Assembly (NCBI GenBank): GCA_041687695.1
Contig: JAWLBL010000018.1
Coordinates: 1-64,000, forward strand
Direction of reading: 5' to 3'
From: Myxococcota bacterium
Lineage (GTDB): Bacteria; Myxococcota_A; UBA9042; PHBI01; JAWLBL01
Length of the DNA stretch: 64,000 nucleotides
Made by a program: the position numbers and the translations under genes
In this document: positions 6,409 through 53,632 of the stretch, one piece after another
How the letters are laid out: every line of letters starts with the position of its first letter
How positions within the stretch are numbered: the first letter of the stretch is position 1
Notes under the pieces: model-generated
Databases searched by the model: none
What the model saw: the letters and a program-made list of their open reading frames with translations, nothing else
Told to the model about the DNA's origin: nothing

Positions 6409-6743
6409 CCGATGAAGGCGATTCTCGAAGCAGACAGGGGCCGTTGAAGAGCGTCGCTGACTCAGGGCCGGCTGGAAGCCGGCGGTCCCAGGGAGGCGGG
6501 GTCGGAGGGCGGCGGCGGGGCGCTGACCCCGGGCCGGCTGGAAGCTGGCGGTCCCAGGGAGGCGGGGTCGGAGGACGGCGGCGGGGCGGCACCCCCAGGC
6601 CGGCTGGAAGCCGGCGGTCCCAGGGAGGCGGGGTCGGAGGGCGACGGAGGGGCGCCAACCCCAGGCCGGCTGGAAGCCGGCGGTCCCAGAGAGGCTGGGT
6701 CGGAGGGCGGCGGAGGGGCGGCGACCCCGGGCCGGCTGGAAGC

Positions 6744-7068
6744 TGTGGAGTCCAGAAAGTTTGGCGGGGATCGTCCAGTAATTCTGGCGGGATCCATAGC
6801 GCCGGCATGGCCGGCGCGGTCCATAGCGCCGGCAAGGCCGGCGCGGTCCATAGCGCCGGCATGGCCGGCGCGGTCCAGAGCGCCGGCATGGCCGGCGCGG
6901 TCCAGAGCGCCGGCATGGCCGGCGCGAACGACCCTGCGAGCATGCTCGGGCTGGGGTGTCGTTCCGCCGCCGCAGGCGGCTGTGGACCGCGCAGGCCATG
7001 CCGGCGCTGTGCGATGGAACCCGCCAGAATTTCTGGAATGTCACCCGCCAGGATTATCGGACTTCACA
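6744..7068. mobile_element. 325-bp non-autonomous element (MITE-A) with TGT...ACA ends and 5-bp TSD GAAGC
   Basis: Ends TGTGGAGTCC / GGACTTCACA; ~50-bp imperfect TIRs, each with two 18-bp sites; GAAGC at 6739-6743 and 7069-7073. Confidence 0.85.
6793..6926 (+). repeat. Five 27-bp tandem hairpin repeats inside MITE-A (TCCATAGCGCCGGCATGGCCGGCGCGG), plus an inverted copy near 6983-7012
   Basis: Direct reading; stem GCGCCGGC/GCCGGCGC. Confidence 0.9.
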
Positions 7069-7177
7069 GAAGCCGGCGGGCCCAGGGAGGCTGGGTCCCA
7101 GGGCGGCGGCGGGGCGGCGACCCCAGGCCGGCTGGAAGCCGGCCGTCCCAGCCGGCCTATCCGGGCCCGTGACGGTC

Positions 7178-7573
7178 TCACTCGGCGCGACGCGTGCTGC
7201 CTGTGAGTCGGCGAAGCGTGCCCGTCACCTCCGCCTTCGTCGCCTCGCCTCGGGCGACGCTCATCGTCAGCTCGTACAGTTCCTTTGGCTGGGCGCTGAT
7301 GGGGAGGCCATTGAAATCCAGAAAGACCAGAGCCGAGAGCAGGCCGGGGCACTCGGCGAGCTTGCGGAAGGTGTCGTCGTGCGCGTCCATCATGGCCTCG
7401 GCGGAGGCACGGAGGCGGCGAGCTCGGTCCGATCCCACCGGTCGGATGACGAGTCCTTCGCCATCGGTGCGGACCTCGAGCTCCGTGTCGCGGTCGATGC
7501 CGAGCAGCTCGAGGATGGGACCCTCGATGACGAGGCCGAGCTCGCCTCCGACGTCTGTGAGCTTGCGGATCAA
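7178..7573 (-). pseudogene. AbrB/MazE-type antitoxin fused in frame to a C-terminal Doc (Fic) toxin remnant
   Basis: N-terminal ~74 aa are AbrB-like (ending FRKLAE); then GLLSALVFLDFNG... matches Doc downstream of the HxFxDGNKR motif, which is missing. Confidence 0.75.
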
Positions 7574-7899
7574 GGGTGACCTCCGGGGCGAGCAGGTGGG
7601 TGTTGGCCGTGGAGTCGATAGGCGAGGGCCGAGGTCGTGTCACCGGTGGGTCGGGTCGGCATGGGGGCCACCGTATCGGCAGGCCGGCGGGTCTGTCATC
7701 CAGGTCGAGGGCGGCGGCGGGGCGGCGATCCGCGGCCGGCTGGAAGTGGGTGCCGTCGGCTTCCAGAGGGGAGCTGAGGCAAGCTGCCTTGCCGCCATTC
7801 GGGCCGGCGGGGAGGCATTGGCTCGCTGTCTGCGTGGGCGTCGGGCGACCGAGCGTCTTGCTTGGATACCGGGAATGCATGTATGGATGGAGGACGTTC

Positions 7900-8190
7900 G
7901 TGATCGCGAGCTTCGCCGACAAGGCGACGGAGGACCTGTTCCACGGCCGTGTCAGCGCCGCGACCCGGCGCGTGCCTGTCGAGGTGAGGGCCAGGGCTGT
8001 TCGCAAGCTCGACGCATTGCAGGCCGCGCGAGCTCTGAACGACCTGGCGAGCCCGCCTGGCAACCGGCTCGAGGCCTTGGCGGGCTCGCTGGCCGGGTAC
8101 TACAGCATCCGAGTGAACCAACAGTGGCGTATCGTGTTTCGTTGGCTCGACGGGGCCGCGCACGATGTCCGATTCGCCGACTACCACTGA
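7900..8190 (+). CDS. higB: HigB (RelE/ParE superfamily) plasmid-maintenance killer toxin
   Basis: GGAGG RBS plus GTG at 7900; PPGNRLEAL, YSIRVNQQWRIVFRW and DYH C-terminus. Confidence 0.92.
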   Translation: MIASFADKATEDLFHGRVSAATRRVPVEVRARAVRKLDALQAARALNDLASPPGNRLEALAGSLAGYYSIRVNQQWRIVFRWLDGAAHDVRFADYH

Positions 8191-8199
8191 GGAAGCGTC

Positions 8200-8514
8200 A
8201 TGTTGCCCAGTCATCGCGTTGCGACCCATCCGGGCGAGATCCTGTTGGAAGAGTTCCTGGTGCCGCTGAACCTGTCGCAGGCCGAGCTGGCCCGGCACCT
8301 GGGGGTGCCCATCCAGCGGGTCAACGAGATCGTCAAGGGCAAGCGGGGCATCACGGCCGAGACCGCGTGGCTGCTGGCCGACGCGTTCCGGATGACGCCG
8401 GAGTTCTGGATGCACGCGCAGGCCGCATACGACCTGACTCTGACGAGGGACAAGCGGCGGCGCGTGGCTCCGCTGGTGCCCGAGGCGACCGTGAAGCTCG
8501 AAGAGCCGGGCTGA
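8200..8514 (+). CDS. higA: HigA antitoxin (XRE HTH)
   Basis: HPGEILLEEFL...SQAELARHLGVP...RVNEIVKGKRGIT...PEFW. Confidence 0.95.
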   Translation: MLPSHRVATHPGEILLEEFLVPLNLSQAELARHLGVPIQRVNEIVKGKRGITAETAWLLADAFRMTPEFWMHAQAAYDLTLTRDKRRRVAPLVPEATVKLEEPG

Positions 8515-8587
8515 CGGTGCCCGGGGTCGGATGACCCGAGCCGGTGGGGTCGCTGGACCCTTCGGTCGGGGCGGACGGGGCCGTGGG

Positions 8588-9562
8588 TCAGGGCGTGGCG
8601 CGGGCGGGGACGGGGACGGACGGCAGGGCGCGGGCGGTGCCCTCGGGCAGGACCCAGAAGGTGGCGGGGTCGACCGAGGCGGCGGTGAGGGCCGCGGCGA
8701 GGTCGGCCTGGGGGGCGTCGAAGGCCTCGTCGGTGAGGCGGAAGGTGCCGTAGTGGATGGAGAGGCTGTGGGCGGCGCGCAGGTCCAGGTGGGCCTGGAC
8801 CGCCTCGGCGGGGTCCATGTGGACCTGCTTCATCACCCAGCGGGGGGCGTAGGCGCCGATGGGCAATAGGGCCAGGCGGGGCGGGCCGAGGCGGGCCGCG
8901 ATGTCGGTGAAGTGGGGGCCGTAGCCGGTGTCGCCGGCGAAGAAGAGGGGGCCGGCGGGGGAGGCGACGACGTGGCCGCCCCACAGGGCGCGGTCGCGGT
9001 CGAAGAGGCCGCGGCCCGAGAAGTGCTGGGCGGGGACGAAGGTGACCCGGGCGGGACCGGCGGGGCCGGAGAGGTCGGTCGACTGCCACCAGGCCAGCTC
9101 GGTGACGTGGCGGACGCCGAAGGAGGCGAGCAGGGCGGCGTGGCCGAGGCCGGTGATCCAGCGGGCCTGGGGGTGCCGCTGGGCCAGGGCGCGGGCGGTG
9201 GCGGCGTCGAGGTGGTCGTAGTGGTTGTGGCTGAGCAGGACCGCGTCGAGGGGGGGCAGGTCGTCCAAGCGCAGGCCGGGGGGGCGGACGCGGCGGGGGC
9301 CGGCCCACTGGACGGGGCTGCAGCGGCGGGACCAGACCGGGTCGGTCAGCAGGTTCAGGCCGTCCAGCTGGACCAGCACCGTGGCGTGGCCGACGAAGGT
9401 GGCGCGCAGCTCGCCGGCGCCGACGCGGGCGGGCGGCGGCGGGCCGGGCGGGGCGTCGAAGGGCTTGGGCCAGGGGACCGGACGGCGGGTGACGGCCCAC
9501 TTGACGATGTCCTTGAAGCCGGCGTGGCGGGTCGGGACCAGGTTCTGGTGGCGGTCAGCCAT
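8588..9562 (-). CDS. MBL-fold metallo-hydrolase (NAPE-PLD/RomA-like)
   Basis: GHAT, TDPVWS, SHNHYDHLD, FAGDTGY, HMDP and IHYGTF motifs. Confidence 0.92.
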   Translation of the reverse strand: MADRHQNLVPTRHAGFKDIVKWAVTRRPVPWPKPFDAPPGPPPPARVGAGELRATFVGHATVLVQLDGLNLLTDPVWSRRCSPVQWAGPRRVRPPGLRLDDLPPLDAVLLSHNHYDHLDAATARALAQRHPQARWITGLGHAALLASFGVRHVTELAWWQSTDLSGPAGPARVTFVPAQHFSGRGLFDRDRALWGGHVVASPAGPLFFAGDTGYGPHFTDIAARLGPPRLALLPIGAYAPRWVMKQVHMDPAEAVQAHLDLRAAHSLSIHYGTFRLTDEAFDAPQADLAAALTAASVDPATFWVLPEGTARALPSVPVPARATP

Positions 9563-10295
9563 GGGGGGCCTCGGGCGCGGGCGGGGTGGGCCAGGCGAAG
9601 AAGCCGCGGGGGCGGTCGGTGATGCCCTCGGGGAGCTGGACCTCGGTGAGGGTGTAGCCCCAGGCGCGCCAGCGGTCCAGGCGGCGGCGGGTGATCTCGG
9701 CCACCATGGCGTCGCCGGACAGATCGAGGCGCTGGGCGTCTGCGCCCAGCAGGGCGCGCGATTCGCAGCAGGGCACGACGAAGAAGGGGGCGCCGCTGCG
9801 GTGGGCCAGGGCGGCGGTGTGGTCGGTCAGGGCGCCGCAGCCGTGGATGGCGGCGACCAGGGTGCGCGGGGTGACCGGGGAGGTGTGCTCGGCGCGGCGC
9901 TCGAGGTAGCGCAGGCGGCGCTTGAGGAAAGGCCAGCGGGGCGCGACCAGCTCGACGATGCGCTCGTAGCTGTCGGGCTGGCGCTTGTCGACCAGGGTGA
10001 CGCGGGTCAGGTGGGGGTGGGTCAGGGCGGCGAAGACCCCGACCATGCCGTGGCCGGCGGCGACCTCGCACAGGGCGTCGACGCGGGGCAGCGCCGGGGC
10101 GAGGAGCTCGAGGGCGCAGACCGACTCGCAGAACTCCTTGAGGCGCACGGCGCGGCGGTTCATCACCAGGTGGGCGAAGACGTACAGCGGGTGCTGGCGG
10201 CCGAGCCAGCCGCGCACGAAGGCCGCCTTGTCCATGTTCAGGTGGTGGGTCGAGCGCAGGTTGCCCGGCGGCGGGGCGGGCGCGACGGCGTGCAC
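9555..10295 (-). CDS. SAM-dependent methyltransferase-like protein
   Basis: AGGAGG RBS plus GTG at 10295; EVAAGHG motif I, IHGCGALTD and VPCC motifs. Confidence 0.75.
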   Translation of the reverse strand: MHAVAPAPPPGNLRSTHHLNMDKAAFVRGWLGRQHPLYVFAHLVMNRRAVRLKEFCESVCALELLAPALPRVDALCEVAAGHGMVGVFAALTHPHLTRVTLVDKRQPDSYERIVELVAPRWPFLKRRLRYLERRAEHTSPVTPRTLVAAIHGCGALTDHTAALAHRSGAPFFVVPCCESRALLGADAQRLDLSGDAMVAEITRRRLDRWRAWGYTLTEVQLPEGITDRPRGFFAWPTPPAPEAPHG

Positions 10296-10417
10296 GGCGG
10301 GGGGCCTCCTGGCGGGCGGGTCCGGGGCATGTTGGGCGCCGCGGCGGGCGGTGGCAAGGGGCGCGGCGGGCGCGGGCGGCGGCCAAGAGGGGCCACGGCT
10401 GGCTTCGAGCTTGCCGC

Positions 10418-10438
10418 GGTGTAGAATTCCTCTACACC
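10418..10438. promoter_or_regulatory. Perfect inverted repeat GGTGTAGA-N5-TCTACACC, candidate enhancer-binding-protein site
   Basis: AT-rich TGT-N11-ACA dyad about 85-100 bp upstream of a sigma54 promoter. Confidence 0.6.
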
Positions 10439-10520
10439 CGTGGTCAGCGCCTGGGCAGGGAGATCCGGCGGGGCGAGGTCGCGGGCGCGGCCGGCGCGAT
10501 GCAGCGGGTCGCCGGCAGGC

Positions 10521-10536
10521 TGGCACGGACCTTGCT
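10521..10536 (+). promoter_or_regulatory. Sigma54 (-24/-12) promoter
   Basis: TGGCACGGACCTTGCT matches TGGCACG-N4-TTGCW exactly, 43 bp before the ATG. Confidence 0.85.
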
Positions 10537-10579
10537 GAAGCTCTAGGATGCTCCCTTCCCACCCCTCCGAGGTGACCCC

Positions 10580-11785
10580 ATGATGTCCCGACTGCTCGCC
10601 CTCACCGCCGGGATCGGCGCCTTCGCCCTCGGCGGACAAGCGCTGGCCCAGACCTGTGTGACCGACGCCGACTGCGCCGAAGGCCAGGTGTGCCTGGCGA
10701 CGCCGTGCGCCGCGCCCGACTGCGACCCCGACGACGCCGAGTGCGACCCGCCCGTGTGCGAGGACGTCTGCGTCGACGACCCGGGCGGCGTCCCGTGGTC
10801 CGAGTGCGCCAGCGACGACGACTGCGGCGCCGGCTTCGTGTGCGAGGCGGTCGGCGGGTCCGACTGCGCCTGCCCCGCCGGGGCCGACTGCATGGACTGC
10901 GAGCCCGAGACCTTCTACGGCTGCGTGCCGGCGCCCTGCCAGAGCGACGCCGACTGTGGCGAGGGCCTGGTCTGCCTGACCTTCGAGAGCGCGAGCTGCA
11001 GCGACACCGCCGAGCCGATGCCCGTCTGCGAGCCCGGCCAGGAGTGCGAGGAGCCCAGCGGCGTCCCGGCGCCGCCCGAGTGCGAGACCGAGACGGTCAG
11101 CTTCTGCGGGCCCAAGTACCTCGCCGCCTGCGAGGTCGACGGCGACTGCGGCGAGGGCTTCACCTGCGAGGTCGCCGAGGAGTGCAGCTGCTCGGGCGGC
11201 GGCGCGACCCCGACCGACCCCGTGCCCGAGCCGGGCCAGGACGGCGGCGACGCCGGCGACCCGATGCCGCCGCGCGAGTTCGACGACGGCGCTCCGCCCG
11301 AAGAGTGCGTGTGCGAGCCGACGGGCGAGAAGTACTGCCAGGCGCAGGAGATCGCCTGTGAGGACGACGCGGCCTGCCCGACCGGCTGGACGTGCGAGAG
11401 CTACCCCTCGACCCCCAGCACCTGCTGGACCGACGAGTCCGGCAACGTCGAGTGCGACGACGAGCAGGGCGTCCCGGCGCCGTCCGTCTGCGTGCCGCCC
11501 TACTACGGTGAGTACCCCGGCCCCGGCCAGCCCGGCGGCGTCCCGGTCGACGACAAGGAGACCAGCGAGCCGAACCGCCCCGACCCGACCACCGACCCCA
11601 CCGACCCGACGACCGAGACCCCCGGCGAGAGCCAGGGCCCGGGCGCCCAGCCGACCGAGGCGACCGGCGGGGCGAGCGGCTGCGCGGGCGGCGAAGGCGG
11701 CCTGGGCGCGACGCTGACCCTGCTGGCGGCGCTGCTGCTGGGCGGGCTGGTGCGCCGCGAGCGGAGCTTCGGACGCCGCTCGTAA
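10580..11785 (+). CDS. Secreted acidic Cys-rich repeat protein with MYXO-CTERM-like sorting tail
   Basis: Signal peptide; repeated CxxDxDCxxGxxC units; Pro/Thr linker; SGC, then a TM helix, then an Arg-rich end. Confidence 0.88.
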   Translation: MMSRLLALTAGIGAFALGGQALAQTCVTDADCAEGQVCLATPCAAPDCDPDDAECDPPVCEDVCVDDPGGVPWSECASDDDCGAGFVCEAVGGSDCACPAGADCMDCEPETFYGCVPAPCQSDADCGEGLVCLTFESASCSDTAEPMPVCEPGQECEEPSGVPAPPECETETVSFCGPKYLAACEVDGDCGEGFTCEVAEECSCSGGGATPTDPVPEPGQDGGDAGDPMPPREFDDGAPPEECVCEPTGEKYCQAQEIACEDDAACPTGWTCESYPSTPSTCWTDESGNVECDDEQGVPAPSVCVPPYYGEYPGPGQPGGVPVDDKETSEPNRPDPTTDPTDPTTETPGESQGPGAQPTEATGGASGCAGGEGGLGATLTLLAALLLGGLVRRERSFGRRS

Positions 11786-11804
11786 GCGAAGCCCGAGACT
11801 GAAC

Positions 11805-11873
11805 CCGCGCCCCGCCCGGCCGCGCGGGCCCCGCACCCGGGGCTCGCGCCGGCTGGCGCGGGGCGCGGCGTTT
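11805..11873. terminator. Long GC-rich hairpin between convergent genes
   Basis: CCGCGCCCCGC...GCGGGGCGCGG with inner paired segments; only a short T run follows. Confidence 0.55.
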
Positions 11874-11923
11874 CGAAGACCGCGGGGGGCGGAGGCGGCG
11901 CTGGGGCGGCGCGGGCCGGAGCG

Positions 11924-12820
11924 TCAGCGGGGCGTCGGCGCGGGGCGAGGCTGCAGGCGCGCGTCGGGGTTCTGCTCGAGGAAGCGCTCGAGCAGCGGGT
12001 CGGGCTGCACGCGGAAATGGCCGATGATGGGCCAGTCGGTCAGCCGGTGGTGGTCGGTCGGGCGCTTGTCGGCGGGGACGACGGTGACGACGCGGGGGAC
12101 GCCCTTGGCGTCGCGGCGGTCGGTGACCAAGCCGACCATCGTCGGGATGGCGGCGCCGGGGTTGGGGGCCCAGAAGACGAGGTCGCCGGGCAGGAAGGCG
12201 GCGAGGCGCTCGGGGGTGTCGGCGGCCGTCGGGTGGGCGTCGGCGAAGGTCTTGACGAAGACGTGCAGGATGGGCAGGCGCCGGTGGTCGATGGAGGTGT
12301 CCGGGCGGGGACGACCCCAGATGTGCAGGGGATAGCGCGACGGCGTCTTCACGCGGTCGTGGTGGACCAGCTGCTGCAGATCGAGGCCCACGGCGCGCAG
12401 GCAGCGCACGACCAGATCGGGGGACGAGACCAGGTGCGCGCCGACGTCGCCCCAGGGGTAGTCCATCTTCTGATAGGTCTGCGAAAAGCGCGGGTTGCGG
12501 GCGACCTGGGCGTCGGCGCAGGCGACCAGGCGGGCCTGGGCGTCGGTGAGCTGGCCGGGCCACGGGGGCAGCTGCGGGACGTCAGGGTCGTGCTGCTCGG
12601 CGCCGGCGAGGACCTCGCGGACCACCTGGCGGAAGGCGCGCTCGCGCTTGACCCAGTCCTCGGGGTTCTCGAAGAGCGGGCTGAAGACCCAGTACCAGAG
12701 CCACGCGATGCCGCCGATGAGGGCCAGGCCGACGAAGAGGCCGGTCAGCGGGTGGCGGCGGCGCGCGCGGCGGGTGGGGCCGCCTTCGAGCGGCATCTGG
12801 GGCTCGCCCCAGGCGCTCAT
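11924..12820 (-). CDS. DUF1287-family (YijF-like) membrane-anchored protein
   Basis: YPWGDV, GLDLQQLVH, PDTSIDHRR and PGDLVFW motifs; N-terminal TM helix. Confidence 0.85.
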   Translation of the reverse strand: MSAWGEPQMPLEGGPTRRARRRHPLTGLFVGLALIGGIAWLWYWVFSPLFENPEDWVKRERAFRQVVREVLAGAEQHDPDVPQLPPWPGQLTDAQARLVACADAQVARNPRFSQTYQKMDYPWGDVGAHLVSSPDLVVRCLRAVGLDLQQLVHHDRVKTPSRYPLHIWGRPRPDTSIDHRRLPILHVFVKTFADAHPTAADTPERLAAFLPGDLVFWAPNPGAAIPTMVGLVTDRRDAKGVPRVVTVVPADKRPTDHHRLTDWPIIGHFRVQPDPLLERFLEQNPDARLQPRPAPTPR

Positions 12821-13974
12821 CAGCCGGCGACCCCGGCGGCGACCGACCAGCCGGCCCAGGGGGCGAGCCAGGCGAGGGCGACGACGAGCGCGGCGGCGGC
12901 CCAGGAGGCCCAGGGGGCGCGGCCGGTGGCGAGGGCGGTGAAGAGGCCGACGGCCATCAAGACCGCGCCGGCGAGCAGGGCGTGGGCGACGGCGGGGGCG
13001 AGGGCGGCGCCGGAGGCGAACAGGGCGCCGGCGGCGGCGACCAGCAGGGCCAGGGCGACGAAGGCCGGCAGGGAGGTGGTGGGGGCCGGGGTCGGGGTGG
13101 GCGCCGGGGCCGGGCGGAGGCCGCGGAAGGCGGCGAAGGCCAGGGCCAGGCCGAGGACGAGGCGGAGCGGGTCGACGGCGGGGCGCGAGGCGAGGCCGAG
13201 GGCGCCCTGGGGCGCGGCCTGGGACGTGAGGGCGAGGTGGCCGCCGGTGGCGAGGTGGAGGCGCTCGAGCGCCTGGGCGGGGTCGTCGACGGTCAGGGTC
13301 GCGCCGCCGAGGAGCTGGACCAGACCGGCGGCGCCGAAGACGGCGAGCAGGGCGGCGCAGGCGGCGAGGCCGAGGTAGCCGACGCGGGTCGCCTGGGCGT
13401 GGCGGGCGATGTGGCCGCCGAGCAGGGTCAGGGCGGCGAGGGCGAGCAGGGCCGGCAGGGCCGCGCCGAGCCAGGCCAGCGGGGGAGACAGGGGCACGGC
13501 GGCGGGCGCGACGACCGAGGCGAGGAGGCCGGTGCGGGCGTCCTGGGCGCCCAGGGTCCAGGGCAGCGCGCGGCCATCGGGAGCGAGCAGGACGGCGAGG
13601 CCGTCGGGCAGAAGGGCGGCCAGGGCAGCCACGGCGGCGACGGCGAGGGTGACGCGGACCGCGCGGTCCGGGCTGGGGCGGCGGGCGGCCCGGCCGGCGG
13701 CGTGCAAGGCGAGGCCCAGGGCGGCGCCGCTGAGGGCGGTGGCCACGATGACCAGCGGGTCCGTCAGCGCCTGTCCGGTCGGGGTGGCGGCGACCAGGAC
13801 GGCGACCAGGCCGACCGGGAGGGCCAGCAGGGAGCCGGCGCCGACGGCGGTGGCGACGGCCAGCAGCAGGGCGGGCGCCTCGGGGGCGCCGCCGAGCAGG
13901 GACAGGGCGGTCGCCGACAGGGCCAGCAGCAGGGCGGCGGCGAGGCGGGCGCTGGACAGGCGGGCGGGTGACAT
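12820..13974 (-). CDS. Polytopic membrane protein in the ccsA position, lacking a recognisable WWD motif
   Basis: Start overlaps the upstream stop (TGATG at 13972-13976); many hydrophobic helices. Confidence 0.65.
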   Translation of the reverse strand: MSPARLSSARLAAALLLALSATALSLLGGAPEAPALLLAVATAVGAGSLLALPVGLVAVLVAATPTGQALTDPLVIVATALSGAALGLALHAAGRAARRPSPDRAVRVTLAVAAVAALAALLPDGLAVLLAPDGRALPWTLGAQDARTGLLASVVAPAAVPLSPPLAWLGAALPALLALAALTLLGGHIARHAQATRVGYLGLAACAALLAVFGAAGLVQLLGGATLTVDDPAQALERLHLATGGHLALTSQAAPQGALGLASRPAVDPLRLVLGLALAFAAFRGLRPAPAPTPTPAPTTSLPAFVALALLVAAAGALFASGAALAPAVAHALLAGAVLMAVGLFTALATGRAPWASWAAAALVVALAWLAPWAGWSVAAGVAG

Positions 13975-15320
13975 CAAGCGGCGGCCTTCCGGGCGCCCGC
14001 GACCAGGCGCTCGAGCAGGTGGCGCGGCCGGCGCGCCCGGTTCCAGGAGGTCAGCGTGACGCGGGTGCCTTCGGCGGTCGGGGTCAGGCGCGCGGTCAGC
14101 TGGGGGACGGCGGCGAAGGCGAGCAGGCCCAGCAGGGCGAGGCCGAGGCCGGTCCACAGGAGGAGGCGGCCGGGGTGAGTGGTCAGGGCGACGGCGACGC
14201 GGGCGCTGGGGACGGCCGAGACGTGGAGCCCGGCGACCGGGGGCGGGGTGGCGTGGTCGGGAGCCGGGGCGAGCAGGACGGGGGGCTGGTCGGGGGCGCG
14301 CAGGACGACCAGCGGGCCGTCGGCGCCCTGGAAGGCGGTCAGGCGGCGGCCGTCGGGCAGGGCGTAGGTGCCGCCGGGCTCGGCGGTGAGGGCCTCGGGG
14401 CGCTCGGCGTCGGCGCGGCGCAGCAGGAGGCGGGCGGGGGCCTGGGGGTCGGCCGGGGCCGGGGCCTCGGAGAGGGGGCGCAGGGTGACGCCCTCGACCT
14501 GGGCCTGGGCGCCGGACCAGAGGTCGACGGTGGACACGCCCGAGGGGCCGCCGACCTGGCAGGCGCGGCGGCGCCAGGGGTCGGCGGGGTCGGCGTCCTG
14601 GCAGACGAGCTGGAGGGGCAGCTGGGCGTCGAGCCAGCGGTCGCCGTCGCGGATCTGGCCGAGGAGCTGGGCGTCGTCGGGGGTCGGGGCGCCGGCGAGG
14701 AAGGTGGCGCGGGCGTCGAGGCCGGTGAGGAGGTCGACGGCGTGGCCGGCGAGGGCGGCGGTGAGGCCGAAGGCGACCAGGATGAGGGGCTGCACGGGGC
14801 CGCCGCGGCGGGCGACGAGGTCGCCGGTCGGGCCGGGATCGAGGCCGCGGGCGGTCAGGCGCGGATCGAGGGCGGTCAGGCGGGCGGCGACGTCGGTCGG
14901 CGGCTCGGGGAGGAGGCCCTCGGCGATGGCGGTCGGGCCCGGGAGGGCGGCGGGGGAGGCGCCGCGGCGGGCGAGGACGAGGCCGGTGAGGTTGAGGGCG
15001 ATGAGCAGGCCGGTGAGCAGGGTCGGCCAGGCGGTCAGGACGTGGTGGAGCTCGAGGGCCTCGATGGTGCGGGCGACCGCGAAGGAGAAGTGGGCGTCGA
15101 GCACGTCGCGGGTGGCGCCCTGCGGGACGAAGAGGCCGGCGAGCAGCAGCGCGGCCAGGGTGACGCCGAGGCCGGCCAGGGTGCGCGGCGAGGTGAGCGT
15201 GGCCCAGGCGAGGTGGGCGAGGTCGCTCGCGGAGGTGGCGGCCGCGGCGCCGGCGGCGGGGGCCGGGGCGGCGGTCGGGGGGGCGTTCTGGACGCGGGGC
15301 CGGGTGGGTGCTTCAGCCAT
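13974..15320 (-). CDS. Divergent ResB/Ccs1-like membrane protein
   Basis: N-terminal LTSPRT...LAGLFVPQ and C-terminal HPG...WTGL..LLGL resemble ResB ends; large soluble middle domain. Confidence 0.6.
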   Translation of the reverse strand: MAEAPTRPRVQNAPPTAAPAPAAGAAAATSASDLAHLAWATLTSPRTLAGLGVTLAALLLAGLFVPQGATRDVLDAHFSFAVARTIEALELHHVLTAWPTLLTGLLIALNLTGLVLARRGASPAALPGPTAIAEGLLPEPPTDVAARLTALDPRLTARGLDPGPTGDLVARRGGPVQPLILVAFGLTAALAGHAVDLLTGLDARATFLAGAPTPDDAQLLGQIRDGDRWLDAQLPLQLVCQDADPADPWRRRACQVGGPSGVSTVDLWSGAQAQVEGVTLRPLSEAPAPADPQAPARLLLRRADAERPEALTAEPGGTYALPDGRRLTAFQGADGPLVVLRAPDQPPVLLAPAPDHATPPPVAGLHVSAVPSARVAVALTTHPGRLLLWTGLGLALLGLLAFAAVPQLTARLTPTAEGTRVTLTSWNRARRPRHLLERLVAGARKAAA

Positions 15321-16060: not shown

Positions 16061-16068
16061 CCAGCCCG

Positions 16069-16215
16069 GCCGGCTGGAAGCCGGCGATCCCAGCGGCGGC
16101 GGGTGCCGGGGGATGGCGCGGGTGCGGCCGGCTGGAAGCCGGCGATCCCGGGGCGGCGGGTGCCGGGGGATGGCGCGGGTGCGGCCGGCTGGAAGCCGGC
16201 GATCCCAGCGGCGGC
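16069..16215 (+). repeat. Three REP units (57-58-bp period)
   Basis: GCCGGCTGGAAGCCGGCGATCCC at 16069, 16127 and 16184. Confidence 0.9.
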
Positions 16216-16245
16216 GGGTGCCTGGTGATGGTGCAGGTGCGGGCC

Positions 16246-16957
16246 GATCCCGGGGCGGCGGAGGCCGTCTTGGAGTGCTCCAGCTTGCTGGAGCCCCGGC
16301 CCCGGCGGCTTGCCGCCGGGATCTGGCCGCAAACCCGGCGCAGCAAGCTGCGCCGATTCGGGGCTCCACCAAGGTGGAGCACTCCAGTTGGGCTTTCGCG
16401 ACACCCGCTGCAAGCCGGCGATCCCGGGGCGGCGGAGGCCGTCTTGGAGTGCTCCAGCTTGCTGGAGCCCCGGCCCCGGCGGCTTGCCGCCGGGATCTGG
16501 CCGCAAACCCGGCGCAGCAAGCTGCGCCGATTCGGGGCTCCACCAAGGTGGAGCACTCCAGTTGGGCTTTCGCGACACCCGCTGCAAGCCGGCGATCCCG
16601 GGGCGGCGGAGGCCGTCTTGGAGTGCTCCAGCTTGCTGGAGCCCCGGCCCCGGCGGCTTGCCGCCGGGATCTGGCCGCAAACCCGGCGCAGCAAGCTGCG
16701 CCGATTCGGGGCTCCACCAAGGTGGAGCACTCCAGTTGGGCTTTCGCGACACCCGCTGCAAGCCGGCGATCCCGGGGCGGCGGAGGCCGTCTTGGAGTGC
16801 TCCAGCTTGCTGGAGCCCCGGCCCCGGCGGCTTGCCGCCGGGATCTGGCCGCAAACCCGGCGCAGCAAGCTGCGCCGATTCGGGGCTCCACCAAGGTGGA
16901 GCACTCCAGTTGGGCTTTCGCGACACCCGCTGCAAGCCGGCGATCCCGGGGCGGCGG
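16246..16957 (+). repeat. Four apparently identical 174-bp tandem units derived from MITE-B plus a half REP
   Basis: Units start at 16246, 16420, 16594 and 16768, partial at 16942; the multi-hairpin core matches the 52-53 kb elements. Confidence 0.92.
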
Positions 16958-16983
16958 CTGGGGAGGGGGCGGCCCGCTGGACG

Positions 16984-44668: not shown

Positions 44669-44723
44669 GGCCGTCGATCTCTCCGGCTGACGCGGACGGG
44701 GCTGGGGGACGCTCGGGCGAGCG

Positions 44724-45851: not shown

Positions 45852-46296
45852 GGGGACCCTCTCTTCAGAGACTCTTCATCATCAAAGGAGAGCCTCCATA
45901 GCAGATCCCAGAAGAGAAAGTAAGGGCTGTGGGCGGTGTGGAGCGGCGCCGGAACCACCCGTAAGCCCGAGACAATCGGGATCCTTTTCCCCGGGGATCG
46001 CGCGATCGATCCACAGGGGGACTTCCTGTGGATGACGCGGAGCGTCACGTCGCCCACCGCTCCTCCACAGGGCCGTCACCAGGATGTCAACGCGTTGTCC
46101 ACGGGGGCCTGTGGATCATCGGAGAAAGTCCCCAACGGACTGGGAAATCTTTCGCTCGGACTCCGAACGCAAGAAGGCCGATCGCGCGGGGGGCGCGTCG
46201 GCCTCGGGTGACCGCCGTCGGAGGGCGGTCGGCGCAGGTCGTCCGGCGGGACGCGGGGGTCCCGTCGGCGGAGTCACGCCACGGCTGGCAGGTGGA
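45852..46296. other. Probable oriC in the dnaA-dnaN intergenic region
   Basis: Degenerate DnaA boxes at 45928, 45937, 46007, 46027 (TCATCCACA on minus), 46061, 46095 and 46110 (TGATCCACA on minus); AT-richer stretch near 45860-45925. Confidence 0.8.
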
Positions 46297-47646
46297 TCAG
46301 TGCGTCAGGCCTCGCCGGAGCCGCTCGATGCGGGCCTTCAGCTCGGGGTCGGCCTCGCGCAGCAGCTCGATGCGCTTCAAGGCGTTGATCACCGTGGTGT
46401 GGTCGCGCCCCCCGAACATCTGCCCGATCTGCGGCAGCGAGCCGTCGGTCAGCTCGCGCACCAGGTGCATCGCCACCTGGCGCGGGACGGTGATGTTGCG
46501 GTGGCGCTTGGGGCCCTTGAGATCGTTGACCGTCAGCCGGTAGTCGGCGGCGACCGCCTTGATGATGGCGTCGGGCGAGACGCGGCGCGCCTCCTCGCTG
46601 ACCAGGTCGCCCAGCACCTCTCGCGTCATGGCGATGGTGATGGGCGTTCCGAAGATGCGGGCGGTCGCCTCGAGGCGCATCAGCGCCCCCTCGAGCTCGC
46701 GCACGTTGGCCACGATGTGGCGCGCGAGCAGCATCGCGACCTCGTCGGGGAGGTCGCAGCCGTCGGCGTCGGCCTTGCGCTTCAAGATGGCGACCCGCGT
46801 CTCGAGCCCCGGCGGCTTGACGTCGGCGATGAGGCCCCACTCGAGGCGGGACTTCAGGCGATCCTCCATGTCGGGGATCGTGCGGGGCGGCTGGTCGCTC
46901 GTCAGCACGATCTGGCGGTGCGACGAGTGCAGCGTGTTGAAGACGTGGAAGAACTCCTCCTCGGTCCGGTCCTTGCCGGCGAGGAACTGGATGTCGTCGA
47001 CCAGCAGGAGATCGCACTCGTCGCGGTACTTGCGGCGGAAGTCGTGGACGCTGTCGGTGCGGATCGCGTTGATGAAGTCGTTGAGGAAGGTCTCGCTGGT
47101 GACGTAGCGGATGCGCGCGCGCGGGTTGCGCTCGGCGACCTCGTGGCCGATGGCGTGGAGCAGGTGCGTCTTGCCCAGGCCCACTCCCCCGTAGATGAAG
47201 AGGGGGTTGTAGCGGGTGCCGGGTCCGTCGGCGACGGCGCGCGCCGCGTTGAGCGCGAACTGGTTGGTCGGGCCGTCGACGAAGCTCTCGAACCGGTAGC
47301 GGGCGATGAGCTCGGGGCGCGGCGTCGGGGCGGCGGGCGCGGTGATCGTCGGCCCGGACCGGTCGGCAGGCGACGCCGGCGCCAGGGCGGCCGCCTGCGC
47401 GTCGTCACCCGGCGTGTCCCAGACGATGCCGTAGTCGGCCAGGCCCTCGCCGGCGAGCGCTTCGGCGATCGTTGGAAGCAGGTGCTCCTCGAGCCAATGC
47501 GCGTGCGACGCGTCGGGGACGCCCAGCACGATCTCGCGGCGCTGGTGATCGACCCGGTGGCACACGATCGGGGCGATCCAGTGCATGTAGTCGTACGGTT
47601 GAATGGTCGACTTCAGCTTGTCGACCGTTCTTTCCCAGACGTTCAA
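46297..47646 (-). CDS. dnaA: Chromosomal replication initiator DnaA
   Basis: [43 protein letters not shown] start. Confidence 0.99.
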
Positions 47647-48067
47647 AGGAGAACCCTTTCACTCGACGGACATGGACGGACGAGGCCATCGACCGCAGCT
47701 GCGGACCATGGCGAGCTCCTCCGTGACGTGGCTGGCGCTGTCCATGCAAAGACGATCGCGAGCGACCGCACGCATCTCCCCGGACAGGCGACGCACGACA
47801 CGGAGCTATTCGAGGCGACGGGTGGGTCGACGCGACCGAGCGCGGCGCGTGACCAGCTTGGTGAGGGGTAGCAGACGGTTCGGGAGGTCGGCAAGGGGCC
47901 CCGCGCCCGGGCGTGGTGACTTCGGGGCGAACCCCCGGAGATCGGGGCCGAATCGGGTTCACGGTGGTCGGGGGGTCGGGCCCGGTGATCCCCAGGTCGG
48001 ATCCGCCAGCGTGGATCGCTCAACGATCCCGGGCGGTTACGGTGGGGCCTCCGCGGCGCCTTTCTTC

Positions 48068-48098
48068 TTGACAGCCGGGCGAGGGGCGTGGTTAGTGT
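48068..48098 (+). promoter_or_regulatory. Candidate sigma70 promoter for the rpmH operon
   Basis: Perfect TTGACA at 48068; -10-like TAGTGT only at a long (19-bp) spacing. Confidence 0.4.
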
Positions 48099-48156
48099 CG
48101 CCGCCTCTTTTGCCCCGGCGGCCCCCGACCGCCCCATCGAAGTCCCGGAGGACGCG

Positions 48157-48309
48157 GTGTCCAAGCGCACGTACCAGCCGAGCAACCGCAAGCGCAAGAA
48201 CAAGCACGGGTTCCGCGAGCGCAACTCGACCCACTCGGGTCGCAAGATCCTGGCCGCTCGCCGCCGTAAGGGCCGCAAGCGCCTGACGGTCACGACGCCC
48301 AAGAAGTGA
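48157..48309 (+). CDS. rpmH: 50S ribosomal protein L34
   Basis: [28 protein letters not shown] plus GTG. Confidence 0.98.
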
Positions 48310-48773
48310 TCCCGCCGGGTGGGGTGGAGTCCGATCGGCCCAGCCATCGCTTCACACCCGAGCAACGCCTCCGCAAGCGCCGCGAGTTCCTCCGCATCCA
48401 GGACCGCGGCCGGCGGATCCACGGCCGACGCTTCATCTTCTCGATCCAACCCGGCGCCACCGACAAGGCCCGCATCGGCATCACGGTCTCCCGAAAGGTC
48501 GGCAACGCCGTCGTCCGAAACCGGATCAAGCGCTGGGTCCGCGAGGCCTTCCGCCAACACCCGGAGCTGTTCCGATACCCCATCGACGTCGTGATGACGG
48601 CCAAGCGGGGCATCGAGGACTTCAGCTACGCGGCCGTTCGGGACGAGCTCATCGATGTCATCACCCGCTACTACGAGTCGCCCGGCGAGGGCCGCCACCG
48701 CGGTGGTCACGGCCCTTCGCGCGCTCGACGCGGGCATCGGCCACGTGGCTCGGGTGCCGATCGCGCTGTATAA
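48306..48773 (+). CDS. rnpA: RNase P protein component
   Basis: [21 protein letters not shown]. Confidence 0.96.
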
Positions 48774-48981
48774 GGCGCTCGTCTCGCCCTTCCTCCCGCC
48801 GGCCTGCCGGTTCCATCCGACCTGCTCGGCCTACGCCGACGGCTGCCTCCGCACCCACGGCTTCCTCCGGGGCGCCCTCCTCGGCGCCTGGCGCATCCTG
48901 CGCTGCCACCCCTGGTCCGCCGGGGGCGAGGATCCCGTCCCACCCCGCCCTCCCCTTCGCCCCTGCCGAGGACGCCCGTGA
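48655..48981 (+). CDS. yidD: Membrane protein insertion efficiency factor (start uncertain)
   Basis: CRFHPTCSAY...RILRCHPW...DPVP. Confidence 0.93.
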   Translation: MSSPATTSRPARAATAVVTALRALDAGIGHVARVPIALYKALVSPFLPPACRFHPTCSAYADGCLRTHGFLRGALLGAWRILRCHPWSAGGEDPVPPRPPLRPCRGRP

Positions 48982-51113
48982 TGATTCGCCCAAGCGCGCG
49001 CGCGCTGATCGCGACCCTGACGGTCACGGCCGCCCTGATGGCCCCGCCAGGCCGCGCCCAGGAGGCGCAGAGCCAGGGGGCCGCCCAGGGCGACGGCGTG
49101 CAGGCGCCCGCCGGACCGGTGATCGAGGTGCCCGGCGAGGTGTCGCGGGCGCGGGTCGAGACCCCGACGGGGCAGCCGATCTCGGACGAGCGCGTCAAGG
49201 TGCGCGTCCCCAAGGCCGATCCCGCGGTCGAGTACGAGTTCACGAGCCGCGGCGGGACGACCCGCGCGGCGCGCATGCTGAACGAGCGCTACACGCGCGA
49301 CGCCCAGCCGGCCGTGCCGGGGGTTCCGGCCGAGAAGGTGGCCGGCGGGCCCATCGATCTGGTGATGACCTGGGACCCCGGGTTCCTGCCGTTCCGGCTC
49401 GAGTTCAGCGAGCTGGCGACCGGGAGCGCGATCACGACCGTCGTGCACCGGGCCCGCGGCGGCGCCCTGGTGGGCGGTCAGCTGCGGCCGCCCGAGGCCG
49501 CGGTCGACGTCGATCAGCGCGTGCGGCCCGGCGATCAGATCGTGATCACGGCGCCGGCCACCGTGGCGGGCACCTTCACCGTGCGCGACGTGGCCGTCGG
49601 CGGCTTCACGCCGGCCGAGACGCTGCCCGTCGCCGACGCGGCGGGCGTGGACTACGAGATCCGGCGCGTCGGTGATCTCAAGGCGCTGTGGGACGCCGGA
49701 CCGACCTTCGCGCGGGTGTCGCAGGGCACCGGCCTGCCGCTGGTCTACGTCTGGCCCGACCCGGCGACCACCGACTCGCCGGTGTATGTCGAGAAGCGCT
49801 TCAGCGCGACCGGCCGCCCCTACCAGCTCGAGCTGGCGGTGACCCTGCACAACGTCGGCGCGGTCGACCTGCGCCACCGCTTCGGGCTGCGGGTCACCGG
49901 GTGGCAGCACCCGTCGATCGGCCCGGGCGGGCTGTTCGAGATCCCGCTGCACACGCTGGCGGGCAGCTGCTGGACCGGCGGCGACCTCGAGCGGCACGAG
50001 TTCGGCTCGCTCGCCGAGGAGCCGCGCAGCTTCTCGACCGACACGTCCTGGGTCGGCGTCGACAGCCGGTACTTCGTCTCGGCGGTCGCCGGGCTGGATC
50101 TTCCGGACGGGCAGTGCGCGCTCGAGGCCAACGCGCAGACGCGCGTCGTCTCGGCGACGCTGTGGCTGCGGGGGGTCCAGACGATCAAGGGGGCGCCCAC
50201 GGCGTGCATCCCGTCGTGGATGGCGCAGCGGCAGCCCGATCGGGTGACCTGCGAGGCCGCGGCGCAGGCCCTGGGCCACCAGCCGACCGACGCGATGCGG
50301 GACATCCGGGCCAGCTGGCAGACCCGCCGGCCCGGCCTCGAGGGCGCCGCGCAGAAGGCGCTGGACGACGCGTGGCAGGCCCTCAGCGCCCGGTCGCGGG
50401 ACGCCTATCGCTTCCTCATCTACACCGGCCCCAAGGACCTCGACGTCCTGAGCCTGGCCGGTCAGAACCTGTCCGAGAGCCTCGACTTCGGCGTGCTGGG
50501 GGTCATCGGCGAGCCGATGCACCGGCTGATGCGCTGGTTCCACGACCTGACGGGCCACTGGGCGCTCGCCATCATCCTGCTGACGCTGCTGGTCAAGCTG
50601 CTGCTGCTGCCGCTGACCAACAAGAGCTTCCAGATGATGCAGAAGATGCAGAAGCTCAAGCCCGAGATGGACGCCCTGCGCGCCAAGCACGGCGAGGATC
50701 GGGTGAAGATCCAGCAGGAGATGATGGCGCTGTACAAGCGCTATCAGGTCAATCCACTGTCGGGCTGCCTGCCGATGGTCATCCAGATGCCGATCTGGCT
50801 CGCCCTGTACCACACCATCGGCTCGGCCGTGGAGCTGTACCACGCGCCCCTCGGGCTGTGGATCCAGGACCTCTCCGCGCCCGATCCCTACTACACCATG
50901 CCCGTTGTGCTCGGCGCCCTGATGCTGGTACAGAGCCACTTCACCACGACCACGCCGATGGAAGGCTTCCAGGGCAAGTTCCTGAAGTACGGCATGCCGG
51001 CCATGTTCAGCATCTTCATGCTGTTCCTGCCGAGCGGGCTCGTCCTGTACATCCTCGTCAACACCCTGCTGACCATCATCCAGAACATCATCATCCGGCG
51101 GCGCATGGCATGA
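48978..51113 (+). CDS. yidC: Membrane protein insertase YidC
   Basis: AIILLTLLVKLLLLPL, NPLSGCLP..IQMP, WIQDLSAPDP, PSGLVLY. Confidence 0.96.
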   Translation: MMIRPSARALIATLTVTAALMAPPGRAQEAQSQGAAQGDGVQAPAGPVIEVPGEVSRARVETPTGQPISDERVKVRVPKADPAVEYEFTSRGGTTRAARMLNERYTRDAQPAVPGVPAEKVAGGPIDLVMTWDPGFLPFRLEFSELATGSAITTVVHRARGGALVGGQLRPPEAAVDVDQRVRPGDQIVITAPATVAGTFTVRDVAVGGFTPAETLPVADAAGVDYEIRRVGDLKALWDAGPTFARVSQGTGLPLVYVWPDPATTDSPVYVEKRFSATGRPYQLELAVTLHNVGAVDLRHRFGLRVTGWQHPSIGPGGLFEIPLHTLAGSCWTGGDLERHEFGSLAEEPRSFSTDTSWVGVDSRYFVSAVAGLDLPDGQCALEANAQTRVVSATLWLRGVQTIKGAPTACIPSWMAQRQPDRVTCEAAAQALGHQPTDAMRDIRASWQTRRPGLEGAAQKALDDAWQALSARSRDAYRFLIYTGPKDLDVLSLAGQNLSESLDFGVLGVIGEPMHRLMRWFHDLTGHWALAIILLTLLVKLLLLPLTNKSFQMMQKMQKLKPEMDALRAKHGEDRVKIQQEMMALYKRYQVNPLSGCLPMVIQMPIWLALYHTIGSAVELYHAPLGLWIQDLSAPDPYYTMPVVLGALMLVQSHFTTTTPMEGFQGKFLKYGMPAMFSIFMLFLPSGLVLYILVNTLLTIIQNIIIRRRMA

Positions 51114-52105
51114 GCAAGAACACCTACACGGGCAAGAACATCGAGACGGCCGTGGCGAACGCCGCCAAGAAGCTGGGCGTGGCGCCGGACGCGCTGAACT
51201 ACGAGGTCCTCGCCGGCCAGGCCGGCGGGTTCGCGCTGATCAAGGTCGTCGAAGGCGGCCCGAAGGCCACCGACCTCGTCGAGAAGCTGAGCGGTCCGGC
51301 GGCCGAGGGCGCTCCGGCGGCCGAGGGCGCCGAGGCGCGCGAAGAGGCGCCGCGCGAGGAGCGACGCGAGCGGCGCGAGGACCGTGGCGAGCGCGGTGAG
51401 CGCGGCGGGCGCGGCGAGCGCGGTGACCGTGGCGAGCGCGGTGACCGTGGCGAGCGCGGTGACCGTGGGGGCCGGGGCCGCGGGCGGCGCGACGACCGCC
51501 GGGGCGGCCGCGACGACCGTCGGGGCCGTGACCGCGATCGCGACGAGCGTCCGCGGCGTCGGCGCGACGACGAGCCGCTGCCCGTGCCGGCCGACGGGCC
51601 GACCGAGGTGCTGCTCGAGGTGGCCGAGGGCACGACCCTGAGCGAGATCGGCGAGGACGCACACGAGGTGATGCGGGACATCCTGACCGGCATGGGCTTC
51701 GGGATGCGCGTGGTCCTCACCGAGAGCGAGGACACGGTCCACTTCCAGCTCCACAGCGGCGTCTATCACGACGCGCTGGTGGCCAACGATCTCGAGGTGC
51801 TCGACGGCATCGAGTACCTCATCGACAAGATCGTGAACTTCGACGCCGAGGACCGGCGCCGCATCGTCGTCGACTCCGAGGGCTACAAGGAGCGCGCCGA
51901 CGTGGATCTGGGCGACTCGGCCCGCGAGCTGGCCCAGCGGGCCATGGACGAGGGCCGGACCCTGAAGATGGGCCCCCTCGACGCGCGCTCGCGCCGCATC
52001 GTCCACATCGCCCTGCGCGAGATCGACGGCGTGACCACGATGAGCGAGGGCGAGGGCGCCTTCCGCCGGGTCTGCATCATCCCGAAGAACCTGACCGAGG
52101 CCTGA
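51110..52105 (+). CDS. jag: Jag/KhpB (EloR) RNA-binding protein with RG-rich linker
   Basis: Jag_N (TGKNIETAV), KH-like region, R3H (RRIVH...SEGEG); ATGA coupling to yidC. Confidence 0.88.
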   Translation: MSKNTYTGKNIETAVANAAKKLGVAPDALNYEVLAGQAGGFALIKVVEGGPKATDLVEKLSGPAAEGAPAAEGAEAREEAPREERRERREDRGERGERGGRGERGDRGERGDRGERGDRGGRGRGRRDDRRGGRDDRRGRDRDRDERPRRRRDDEPLPVPADGPTEVLLEVAEGTTLSEIGEDAHEVMRDILTGMGFGMRVVLTESEDTVHFQLHSGVYHDALVANDLEVLDGIEYLIDKIVNFDAEDRRRIVVDSEGYKERADVDLGDSARELAQRAMDEGRTLKMGPLDARSRRIVHIALREIDGVTTMSEGEGAFRRVCIIPKNLTEA

Positions 52106-52159
52106 TCGCCGGGCGCGCCGGGGGCGGGTCGATGGGCCCGTCCTCCCGGCCGGCTGGAA

Positions 52160-52332
52160 GAGGGTGTCGTATTGATGCCGGCGGAGGCGGCCCTGGAGTG
52201 CTCCGGCTTGCCGGAGCCCCGGCCCCGGCGGCTTGCCGCCGGGATCTGGCCGCCAGACCCGGCGCAGCAAGCTGCGCCGGATGGGGGCTCCACCAAGGTG
52301 GAGCACTCCGGTTGGGCTCTTGCGACACCTTC
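52160..52332. mobile_element. MITE-B copy 1 (173 bp, TSD TGGAA)
   Basis: GAGGGTGTCGTA...TGCGACACCTTC flanked by TGGAA. Confidence 0.75.
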
Positions 52333-52450
52333 TGGAAGACGGCGGTCCCAGGGGGGTGACCGCTGGGATCGGCGGTGACTCGGCCGGCTGGAAGCCGGCG
52401 GTCCCAGGCGGGCGGCCGCTGGGATGGGCGGTGCGCTCGGCCGGCTGGAA

Positions 52451-52623
52451 GAGGGTGTCGTATTGATGCCGGCGGAGGCGGCCCTGGAGTGCTCCGGCTT
52501 GCCGGAGCCCCGGCCCCGGCGGCTTGCCGCCGGGATCTGGCCGCCAGACCCGGCGCAGCAAGCTGCGCCGGATGGGGGCTCCACCAAGGTGGAGCACTCC
52601 GGTTGGGCTCTTGCGACACCTTC
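52451..52623. mobile_element. MITE-B copy 2
   Basis: Same as copy 1, shifted by 291 bp. Confidence 0.75.
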
Positions 52624-52852
52624 TGGAAGACGGCGGTCCCAGGGGGGTGACCGCTGGGATCGGCGGTGACTCGGCCGGCTGGAAGCCGGCGGTCCCAGGC
52701 GGGCGGCCGCTGGGATGGGCGGTGCGCTCGGCCGGCTGGAAGCCGGCGATCCCAGGGGGCTGGCCGCTGAGTTCGGCGGTGAGCTCGACCGCCTGGAAGG
52801 CGGCGGTCCCGCGCCTGAGCGCAGGGATCGGCGGGGACTCGGCCGGCTGGAA

Positions 52853-53024
52853 GAGGGTGTCGTACTGATGCCGGCGGAGGTGGCCTTGGAGTGCTGCGGC
52901 TTGCCGGAGCCCCGGCCCCGGCGGCTTGCCGCCGGGATCTGGCCGCCAGACCCGGCGCAGCAAGCTGCTGCCGGATGGGGGCTCCACCAAGGTGGAGCAC
53001 TCCGGTTGGCCTTGCGATACCCTC
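52853..53024. mobile_element. MITE-B copy 3 (172 bp)
   Basis: GAGGGTGTCGTA...TGCGATACCCTC; TGGAA at 52848-52852 and 53025-53029. Confidence 0.8.
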
Positions 53025-53141
53025 TGGAAGCCGGCGGTCCCAGGGGCTGCAGTCCCTGCATCGTCGCTAACCCGGCCGGCTGGAAGAGGGCGATCCCAGG
53101 GGGCTGACCGCAGGGATCGGCGGTGACGCGGCCGGCTGGAA

Positions 53142-53311
53142 GAGGGTGTCGTATTGATGCCGGCTGGGCGGCCTTGGAGTGCTCCGGCTTGCCGGAGCCC
53201 CGGCCCCGGCGGCTTGCCGCCGGGATCTGGCCGCCAGACCCGGCGCAGCAAGCTGCGCCGGATGGGGGCTCCACCAAGGTGGAGCACTCCGGTTGGCCTT
53301 GCGATACCCTC
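53142..53311. mobile_element. MITE-B copy 4 (170 bp)
   Basis: Same TIRs; TGGAA at 53137-53141 and 53312-53316. Confidence 0.8.
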
Positions 53312-53428
53312 TGGAAGCCGGCGGTCCCAGGGGCTGCAGTCCCTGCATCGTCGCTAACCCGGCCGGCTGGAAGAGGGCGATCCCAGGGGGCTGACCGCAG
53401 GGATCGGCGGTGACGCGGCCGGCTGGAA

Positions 53429-53600
53429 GAGGGTGTCGTATTGATGCCGGCTGGGCGGCCTTGGAGTGCTCCGGCTTGCCGGAGCCCCGGCCCCGGCGGC
53501 TTGCCGCCGGGAGCCGGCCGCCCAACCCGGCGCAGCAAGCTGCGCCGGATGGGGGCTCCACCAAGGTGGAGCACTCCGGTTGGGCTTTTGCGACACCGGC
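53429..53600. mobile_element. MITE-B copy 5 (172 bp)
   Basis: Right end CTTTTGCGACACCGGC; TGGAA on both sides. Confidence 0.72.
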
Positions 53601-53632
53601 TGGAAGCCGGCGGTCCCAGGCCGGCGTTCGGA

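Follow-up and report, generated by a model that had tools for sequence, protein, structure and literature searches.

A gene-less element with IS1182-like ends in the loops of REP hairpins of a Myxococcota bacterium

The first 64,000 bases of contig JAWLBL010000018.1 (C18) of a Myxococcota bacterium, a stretch hereafter called the window, carry three arrays of the short hairpin GCCGGC-TGGAA-GCCGGC (REP H) with gene-less elements embedded in them. These arrays are best read as clusters of repetitive extragenic palindromes (REPs). [quoted passage not shown] To this reading as a whole we attach a probability of about 0.78. The assembly (GCA_041687695.1; G000) comprises 7.97 Mb in 63 contigs at about 73% G+C, is 99% complete by markers and is fragmented at these repeats. 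Contigs given as C-numbers without a genome label belong to it.

Within the window the hairpin matched 12 times at no more than one mismatch, and not once in any of 100 shuffled versions. All matches fall in three arrays, as the original prediction, made from these letters, had described; each array lies between convergent open reading frames (ORFs). Its other observations on the junctions were confirmed: TGGAA flanks both sides of the five MITE-B copies of array 3 (52160-53600), GAAGC is duplicated around MITE-A, and the two sites are offset by 2 bp. The two elements are also unrelated, as was claimed, their ends pointing to the IS1182 and IS21 transposase families, and no hit to a transposase or a REP-associated tyrosine transposase (RAYT) fell in the window, RAYTs being encoded elsewhere in the genome. 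Of the two MITE families proposed, MITE-B is indeed one (58 loci), but the ends of MITE-A occur only once. Both elements do carry hairpin doublets (REPINs), which are probably not the MITEs' own: each kind is a REP family that is also found outside the MITEs and looks like the REPs beside RAYT genes. Tandem amplification of composites holds for MITE-B, with a 291-bp duplication, but for MITE-A only the inner 27-bp hairpin (five copies) and the 66-bp host unit were amplified. The 174-bp units of array 2 are not complete MITE-B copies: the left end is missing from them, as is the left half of the REP, and their right junction is decayed. A 7-bp duplication with shorter ends, which the MITE-B junction would also fit, was considered and rejected, the 5-bp reading winning in seven discriminating copies and at non-REP sites.

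MITE-B as a family of REP loops

A total of 81 paired MITE-B elements of about 172 bp, all without coding capacity, were found at 58 loci on 34 contigs. Four rows had been dropped beforehand (one likely chance pair and three chimeric pairings), a few of the 81 have other interiors, and two loci at contig ends may be a single one. No 250-bp outer flank is common to any two of the 58 loci. The element lies in the host REP loop in 74 of 81 cases, an exact 5-bp target duplication is present in 56, and the bases around the duplication pair at five or six of six stem positions in 68, against 226 of 20,000 random sites. Among 72 orientable copies, 43 are in the same orientation, 23 in the opposite one and 6 lie at non-REP sites. 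The variant loops TCGAA, CGAAA, TGGGA, CCATA and TACTT are each present on both sides of an element. Identity has a median of 0.93 among 65 full copies, 60 of them distinct. A tree built from 47 copies, with each locus represented once, shows no clustering by orientation (13 changes against a shuffled mean of 12.9). The unshared flanks, the two orientations and the duplicated variant loops argue for many independent insertions.

A genome-wide census of empty and filled REPs, made from the foot half of REP H and blind to off-centre insertions such as MITE-A, gave 141 intact copies, 6 near-intact copies, 91 in which a MITE-B end follows and 27 unclassified rows, none of the latter with an IS21-type end. 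A MITE-B-filled copy is contained in 62 of the 92 REP H clusters. Exact copies of REP H number 110, of which 100 fall outside crudely called ORFs.

A dimer of a DDE transposase of the IS1182 family, acting in trans, would cut with a 5-bp stagger at the loop, or centre, of the GCCGGC-N5-GCCGGC palindrome and insert MITE-B in either orientation. Local slippage or recombination would then account for the copies in tandem and for the truncated array 2 units. MITE-B was also found in A-type REPs, the family carried by MITE-A, at four loci; there it sits one base off the hairpin axis and again directly after GCCGGC, so that the sequence of the arms may be no less important than the loop. Only 26 GCCGGC-N5-GCCGGC sites exist outside REPs in the genome, 10 of them outside crude ORFs, and recognition of the sequence is therefore not separable from recognition of an extruded hairpin. 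The insertions in A-type REPs that duplicate GTGGC-like bases are at C48:9505 and 9863, C40:15123, C31:83421 and C21:169858.

A DNA search of 40 relatives returned no homologue of MITE-B or MITE-A, with one weak match each, and a metagenome scan gave two matches, neither one a complete element. Exact-junction matches in species-representative genomes were discarded as chance, since 52 of 52 lacked a matching right end. Helical phasing of element lengths was not seen: lengths of 135, 168, 172-173 and 217-218 bp correspond to 12.9, 16.0, 16.4-16.5 and 20.7-20.8 turns, for only four types.

Probable origins of the IS1182-type and IS21-type ends

As to the mover of MITE-B, its ends point to IS1182. 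Among 107 genomes of the class the family was detected in 64, and was absent from the results for G000. Locus L092, on contig C143 of another genome of the class (G086), is a complete 1802-bp IS1182 element with ends GAGGCTGTCGTG and GAGGCTGTCGCAAA, which agree with those of MITE-B over the first 12-14 bases except at one or two positions. Its transposase passes the IS1182 model NF033551 (283 vs 270 bits), and the element is inserted in the loop of a GC-rich hairpin, with 4 bp of the loop duplicated. This likeness suggests that the MITE-B ends likely derive from an IS1182-type element. A pattern combining right end and hairpin matched, in 401 genomes, only in G000 (35 matches) and G086. The L092 transposase has relatives at 40-53% identity in five other genomes among 400 of the phylum, a single match (32%) in plasmids and none in viral contigs. 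As a separate observation, at C27:125278 an end resembling that of MITE-B sits in a REP loop and is followed by a membrane-protein ORF of roughly 170 codons, and no partner end was seen up to the end of the contig.

MITE-A is represented in the genome by one left and one right end. The pattern of its paired boxes matched in 3 of 400 other genomes, where the ends lie before istA or after istB and the neighbouring proteins pass NF033546 and NF038214; the IstA and IstB hits of G000 itself share no more than 24-37% identity with this clade. Nothing was found for the MITE-A end in plasmids and viral contigs. An origin from Tn7/TniA, considered on account of the TGT ends, was dropped once istA and istB were found at matching ends. 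Judged by its termini, MITE-A is an IS21 remnant, and it likely has the same kind of origin as MITE-B, an IS21 element keeping its ends while an A-type REPIN replaced the interior. Neither movement as a unit nor a preference for REP H is indicated; it may lie where it does by chance, combined with the way the case was selected, or through a general affinity for hairpins. In G166:C294 (L124 and L146), an IS21 left end is followed by ORFs that resemble, by eye, an antitoxin or a toxin-antitoxin pair and not istA, and no right end lies within 14 kb.

The original prediction regarded the REP as a landing pad shared by several transposase families. The many independent insertions support it for MITE-B; for MITE-A there is one event, so that use of the same pad by two families is not shown. 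Because MITE-A is single-copy, with no independent REP insertions elsewhere, the proposal of a family fails for this element on its own terms. We consider it unlikely that the REP loop is a true common target, which the IS21 clade would also prefer, alone or along with hairpin tips generally. The site of MITE-A only 2 bp from that of MITE-B, its clean 5-bp duplication and the tiny share of non-coding DNA taken up by about 240 REP loops, which by a rough estimate makes a lone random hit unlikely, do speak for such a preference, as does REP targeting by several IS families, reported in PMC1525189. Against it stand a single event that was chosen because it was located there, a genome without a second IS21-type end, and 16 related ends in four other genomes with varied flanks, no consensus and none in REP H, which is a weak test as REP H is nearly absent there (one match in five genomes checked).

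REPIN cargoes and the RAYTs of the genome

The A-type hairpins of the MITE-A cargo have 146 matches at 40 loci in the genome, and a RAYT on C15, which passes NF047646, is followed downstream by six A-type REP copies. The B-type hairpins of MITE-B have a GGAGTGC foot in common with the REPs beside the RAYTs of C26 and C54, and 223 of 387 have a MITE-B end upstream. Gap-free REPIN-B cores (n=108) lie in full shells in 81 cases and beside one end in 23, while 4 are free, at two loci; with 104 of 108 retaining at least one IS end, the MITE likely amplified its core. MITE-B-type ends also surround other interiors with REP-type hairpins inside, always in the loop of a host REP. We infer that the cargo was captured and is not native to the parent IS: a REPIN would on a single occasion have taken the place of the interior of an IS1182 derivative, its later spread being mostly as cargo. 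For its entry, RAYT insertion followed by deletion is our preferred guess. Both elements fold far more stably than shuffled sequences (z = -8.3 for MITE-B, -14.4 for MITE-A), which their make-up would lead one to expect.

It seems quite improbable that the inner hairpins were native to the parent IS, or that the whole 172-bp unit was moved by a RAYT and has IS-like ends incidentally. Related IS21 elements do have a hairpin near the right end, and the mere 4 of 108 free cores could have escaped from the MITE; yet the same ends enclose at least four interiors (172, 217-218, 168 and 135 bp) with hairpins of RAYT-flanking families, the 5-bp duplication and the inverted ends are in keeping with a DDE enzyme, and L092 has no such core beside its ends. 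Two further observations concern the A-type doublet: its spacer in the window (6953-6962) holds GGGGTGTCGT, close to the MITE-B end sequence, and at C50:5809 a MITE-B end runs directly into such a spacer, where recombination is possible.

A profile search for Y1_Tnp gave 11 hits in the genome, all outside the window. One of these genes, at C22:44011, has one REP H upstream and seven downstream on opposite strands, an inverted arrangement from which it is likely the RAYT of REP H. A guide tetranucleotide of the GTAG type was not seen in REP H or in the cargo REPs, whose tags are instead GGGAYC, YGGAGTGC and CCAHAG; these repeats behave like REPs yet are not GTAG REPs. Six of the 11 hits (C59, C40, C61, C48, C53) make up a group of their own, in which the C-terminal parts are long and several members are broken; none of the three REP families lies near them.

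That whole composites of REP and MITE were spread by RAYT activity or gene conversion after a few true insertions is very unlikely, for although tandem arrangement is frequent (81 elements at 58 loci), REP H has a likely RAYT and the same orientation is about twice as frequent as the opposite one, both orientations are mixed on the MITE-B tree, non-REP insertions and variant loops have duplications of their own, and the four A-type loci are occupied as well.

Several points weigh against repeated loop insertion of MITE-B by an IS1182 enzyme, the interpretation that we retain. No IS1182 gene was found in G000 with PF05598, NF033551 or tblastn, so that the mover is assigned from the sequence of the ends together with one close element; the gene may have been lost from the genome or be unassembled. 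DDE_Tnp_1 gave no match in G000. The duplication at L092 is of 4 bp and that of MITE-B of 5 bp, other IS1182 elements among 30 loci inspected have less similar ends and no visible hairpin target, and the pattern matched in G086 was built partly on L092, which makes this single outside match not independent. Exact duplications are missing from 25 of the 81 elements, and only 3 of 44 inner branches of the tree are well supported. A strain in which the orthologous sites are empty was not found; four sequencing runs gave only short scattered pieces, of which none bridges the array, and fragmentation of the assembly at the repeats renders counts and tandem copy numbers approximate. As to the RAYTs, the C22 gene passes PF01797 and scores 74.7 against a cut-off of 80 for NF047646 in its 162-residue form, its start codon being uncertain, and no stems identical to those of REPIN-B lie beside the 11 RAYT-like genes, several of which are at contig ends; the link consists of the shared GGAGTGC foot.

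Coordinates in the window are collected in Table 1. The hybrid sites listed there are possibly scars of deletion or imprecise excision. Upstream of arrays 2 and 3, the genes match dephospho-CoA kinase (above the cut-off of one model) and Jag/EloR (below cut-off). At 7735-7775 lies a remnant without explanation, a lone REP half and, after it, a short decayed stretch in which a second loop motif is inverted. A likely HigB-HigA toxin-antitoxin pair lies beside array 1 (7888-8514), in which HigA passes its model and the upstream ORF is a weak toxin match only. Another small repeat family, of about 50 bp at 54-bp spacing, occurs at 1619-1716 and 4055-4159, with a copy at 48784.

Table 1. REP arrays and embedded elements of the window, and other interiors within MITE-B ends (IRL and IRR, left and right inverted repeats)
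Feature	Position	Strand	Remarks
Array 1, host REP H in 66-bp units	6467..7143	-	foot GGGAYC reads on minus strand
Array 1, intact REP H copies	6467, 6533, 6599, 6665, 7127		copy at 6731 split by MITE-A
MITE-A, 325 bp, single copy	6744..7068	- (IRL to IRR)	IS21-type ends; GAAGC duplication at 6739-6743 and 7069-7073
MITE-A, IS21 right-end-like terminus	6744..6791	+	TGT and two repeated boxes; 44/48 bases as in the end beyond istB in L128
MITE-A, cargo	6794..7016	+	A-type REP x5 (27-bp period) and inverted partner
MITE-A, IS21 left-end-like terminus	7019..7068	-	41/50 bases shared with the end that precedes istA in L132
Array 2, three intact host REPs	16069..16200 (16069, 16127, 16184)	-	
Array 2, truncated MITE-B, four tandem 174-bp units	16245..16941	+	REPIN core, decayed right end and right REP half
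MITE-B copy 1 (173 bp)	52160..52332	+	ends GAGGGTGTCG, duplication TGGAA; REPIN core 52195-52309
Array 3, intact (empty) host REPs	52383..52747 (52383, 52674, 52731)	-	
MITE-B copy 2	52451..52623	+	sequence identical to copy 1; 291-bp tandem duplication
MITE-B copy 3	52853..53024	+	
Hybrid site	53075..53097, repeated 53362-53384	+	left REP arm and loop, five MITE-B left-end bases, then REP foot
MITE-B copy 4	53142..53311	+	
MITE-B copy 5	53429..53600	+	last bases of right end swapped for REP sequence
Other interiors in MITE-B ends	G000:C32:13928-14145 (218 bp), C45:457-673 (217 bp), C10:144721-144888 (168 bp), C23:8750-8884 (135 bp)		

Known systems and significance

Published work already describes IS elements inserted in REPs as well as IS1182 elements that target hairpins, and the MITE-B system is not a new class of system. 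The suggestion that the window might hold an undescribed one was not upheld, REPs being known as landing sites for several IS families (PMC1525189).

IS1272, of the IS1182 family, targets stem-loops without a sequence consensus and deletes the target hairpin, with no duplication (PMC5678879, PMC4923244); both papers credit palindrome targeting to Siguier et al. 2015. Insertion into hairpin-forming DNA is common to IS1272, TnSha1 and MITE-B, and duplication of the loop only, drawn as a possible pathway in Fig 13c of PMC5678879, is the outcome at MITE-B. Unlike IS1272, the non-autonomous MITE-B makes a 5-bp duplication, for the most part at one REP, and has a REPIN inside. The Paracoccus yeei element MITEPye1 (PMC11578231) is, like MITE-B, a gene-less and intergenic element with IS1182-like ends, short direct repeats and a stem-loop fold; it differs by its 1-3 copies per chromosome and 4-bp repeats, and the portion of the paper available mentions neither a REP target nor a REPIN cargo.

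Elements that target REPs include ISPsy8, ISPa11, ISPpu9, ISPpu10, ISRm22, IS1397 and IS621 (PMC1525189, PMC3184786, PMC12288879). Among these, ISPpu9 and ISPpu10 are two different IS that have one REP site in common, and ISPsy8 and ISRm22 are inserted at the symmetry axis of the REP with a duplication. The fixed insertion point is like that of MITE-B, and a MITE-like derivative exists, MITEPpu9, the cargo of which is a small RNA gene and not a REPIN (PMC12288879). In contrast to MITE-B and MITE-A, these elements belong to the IS3, IS110, IS4, IS256 and IS5 families, and not to IS1182 or IS21. The repeats themselves are similar to the REPs and REPINs of RAYT (TnpA-REP) systems, namely short GC-rich hairpins with a 5' tag that form doublets or clusters between convergent genes and flank tyrosine-transposase genes (PMC3733652, PMC6006769). 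The tags of those systems are GTAG or GT[AG]G, as opposed to the three found here, and, unlike in them, most REPIN-B copies sit within DDE-type ends. Compared with IS21 (istA, istB), MITE-A has matching ends, the TGT start and repeated boxes, but is without genes, single-copy and filled with a REP array. MITEs of IS1182 or IS21 type that carry REPINs into REP loops were not found in the literature searched, which leaves out most subscription journals and ISfinder.

A wider idea, which we put forward only tentatively, is that REPINs change vehicles. Within one genome, minimal DDE ends would have come to enclose REPINs that belong to distinct RAYT families, on at least four occasions for IS1182 and on one for the unrelated IS21, fold-back cargo being favoured as an aid to end pairing. 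One such hybrid would hold nearly all copies of its REPIN, land in the loop of a rival REP and break that hairpin. If true, this would be a general route for RAYT-dependent repeats to escape their own enzyme and compete with one another.

MITE-B offers a clean example, in high copy number, of loop duplication at the hairpin target of an IS1182-type element; for IS1272 this outcome had been drawn as possible and was not seen. Its defined 17-bp target would suit a simple assay that tells recognition of sequence from recognition of structure. Our findings also suggest that a DDE transposase can drive REPIN copy numbers, which are usually credited to RAYTs.

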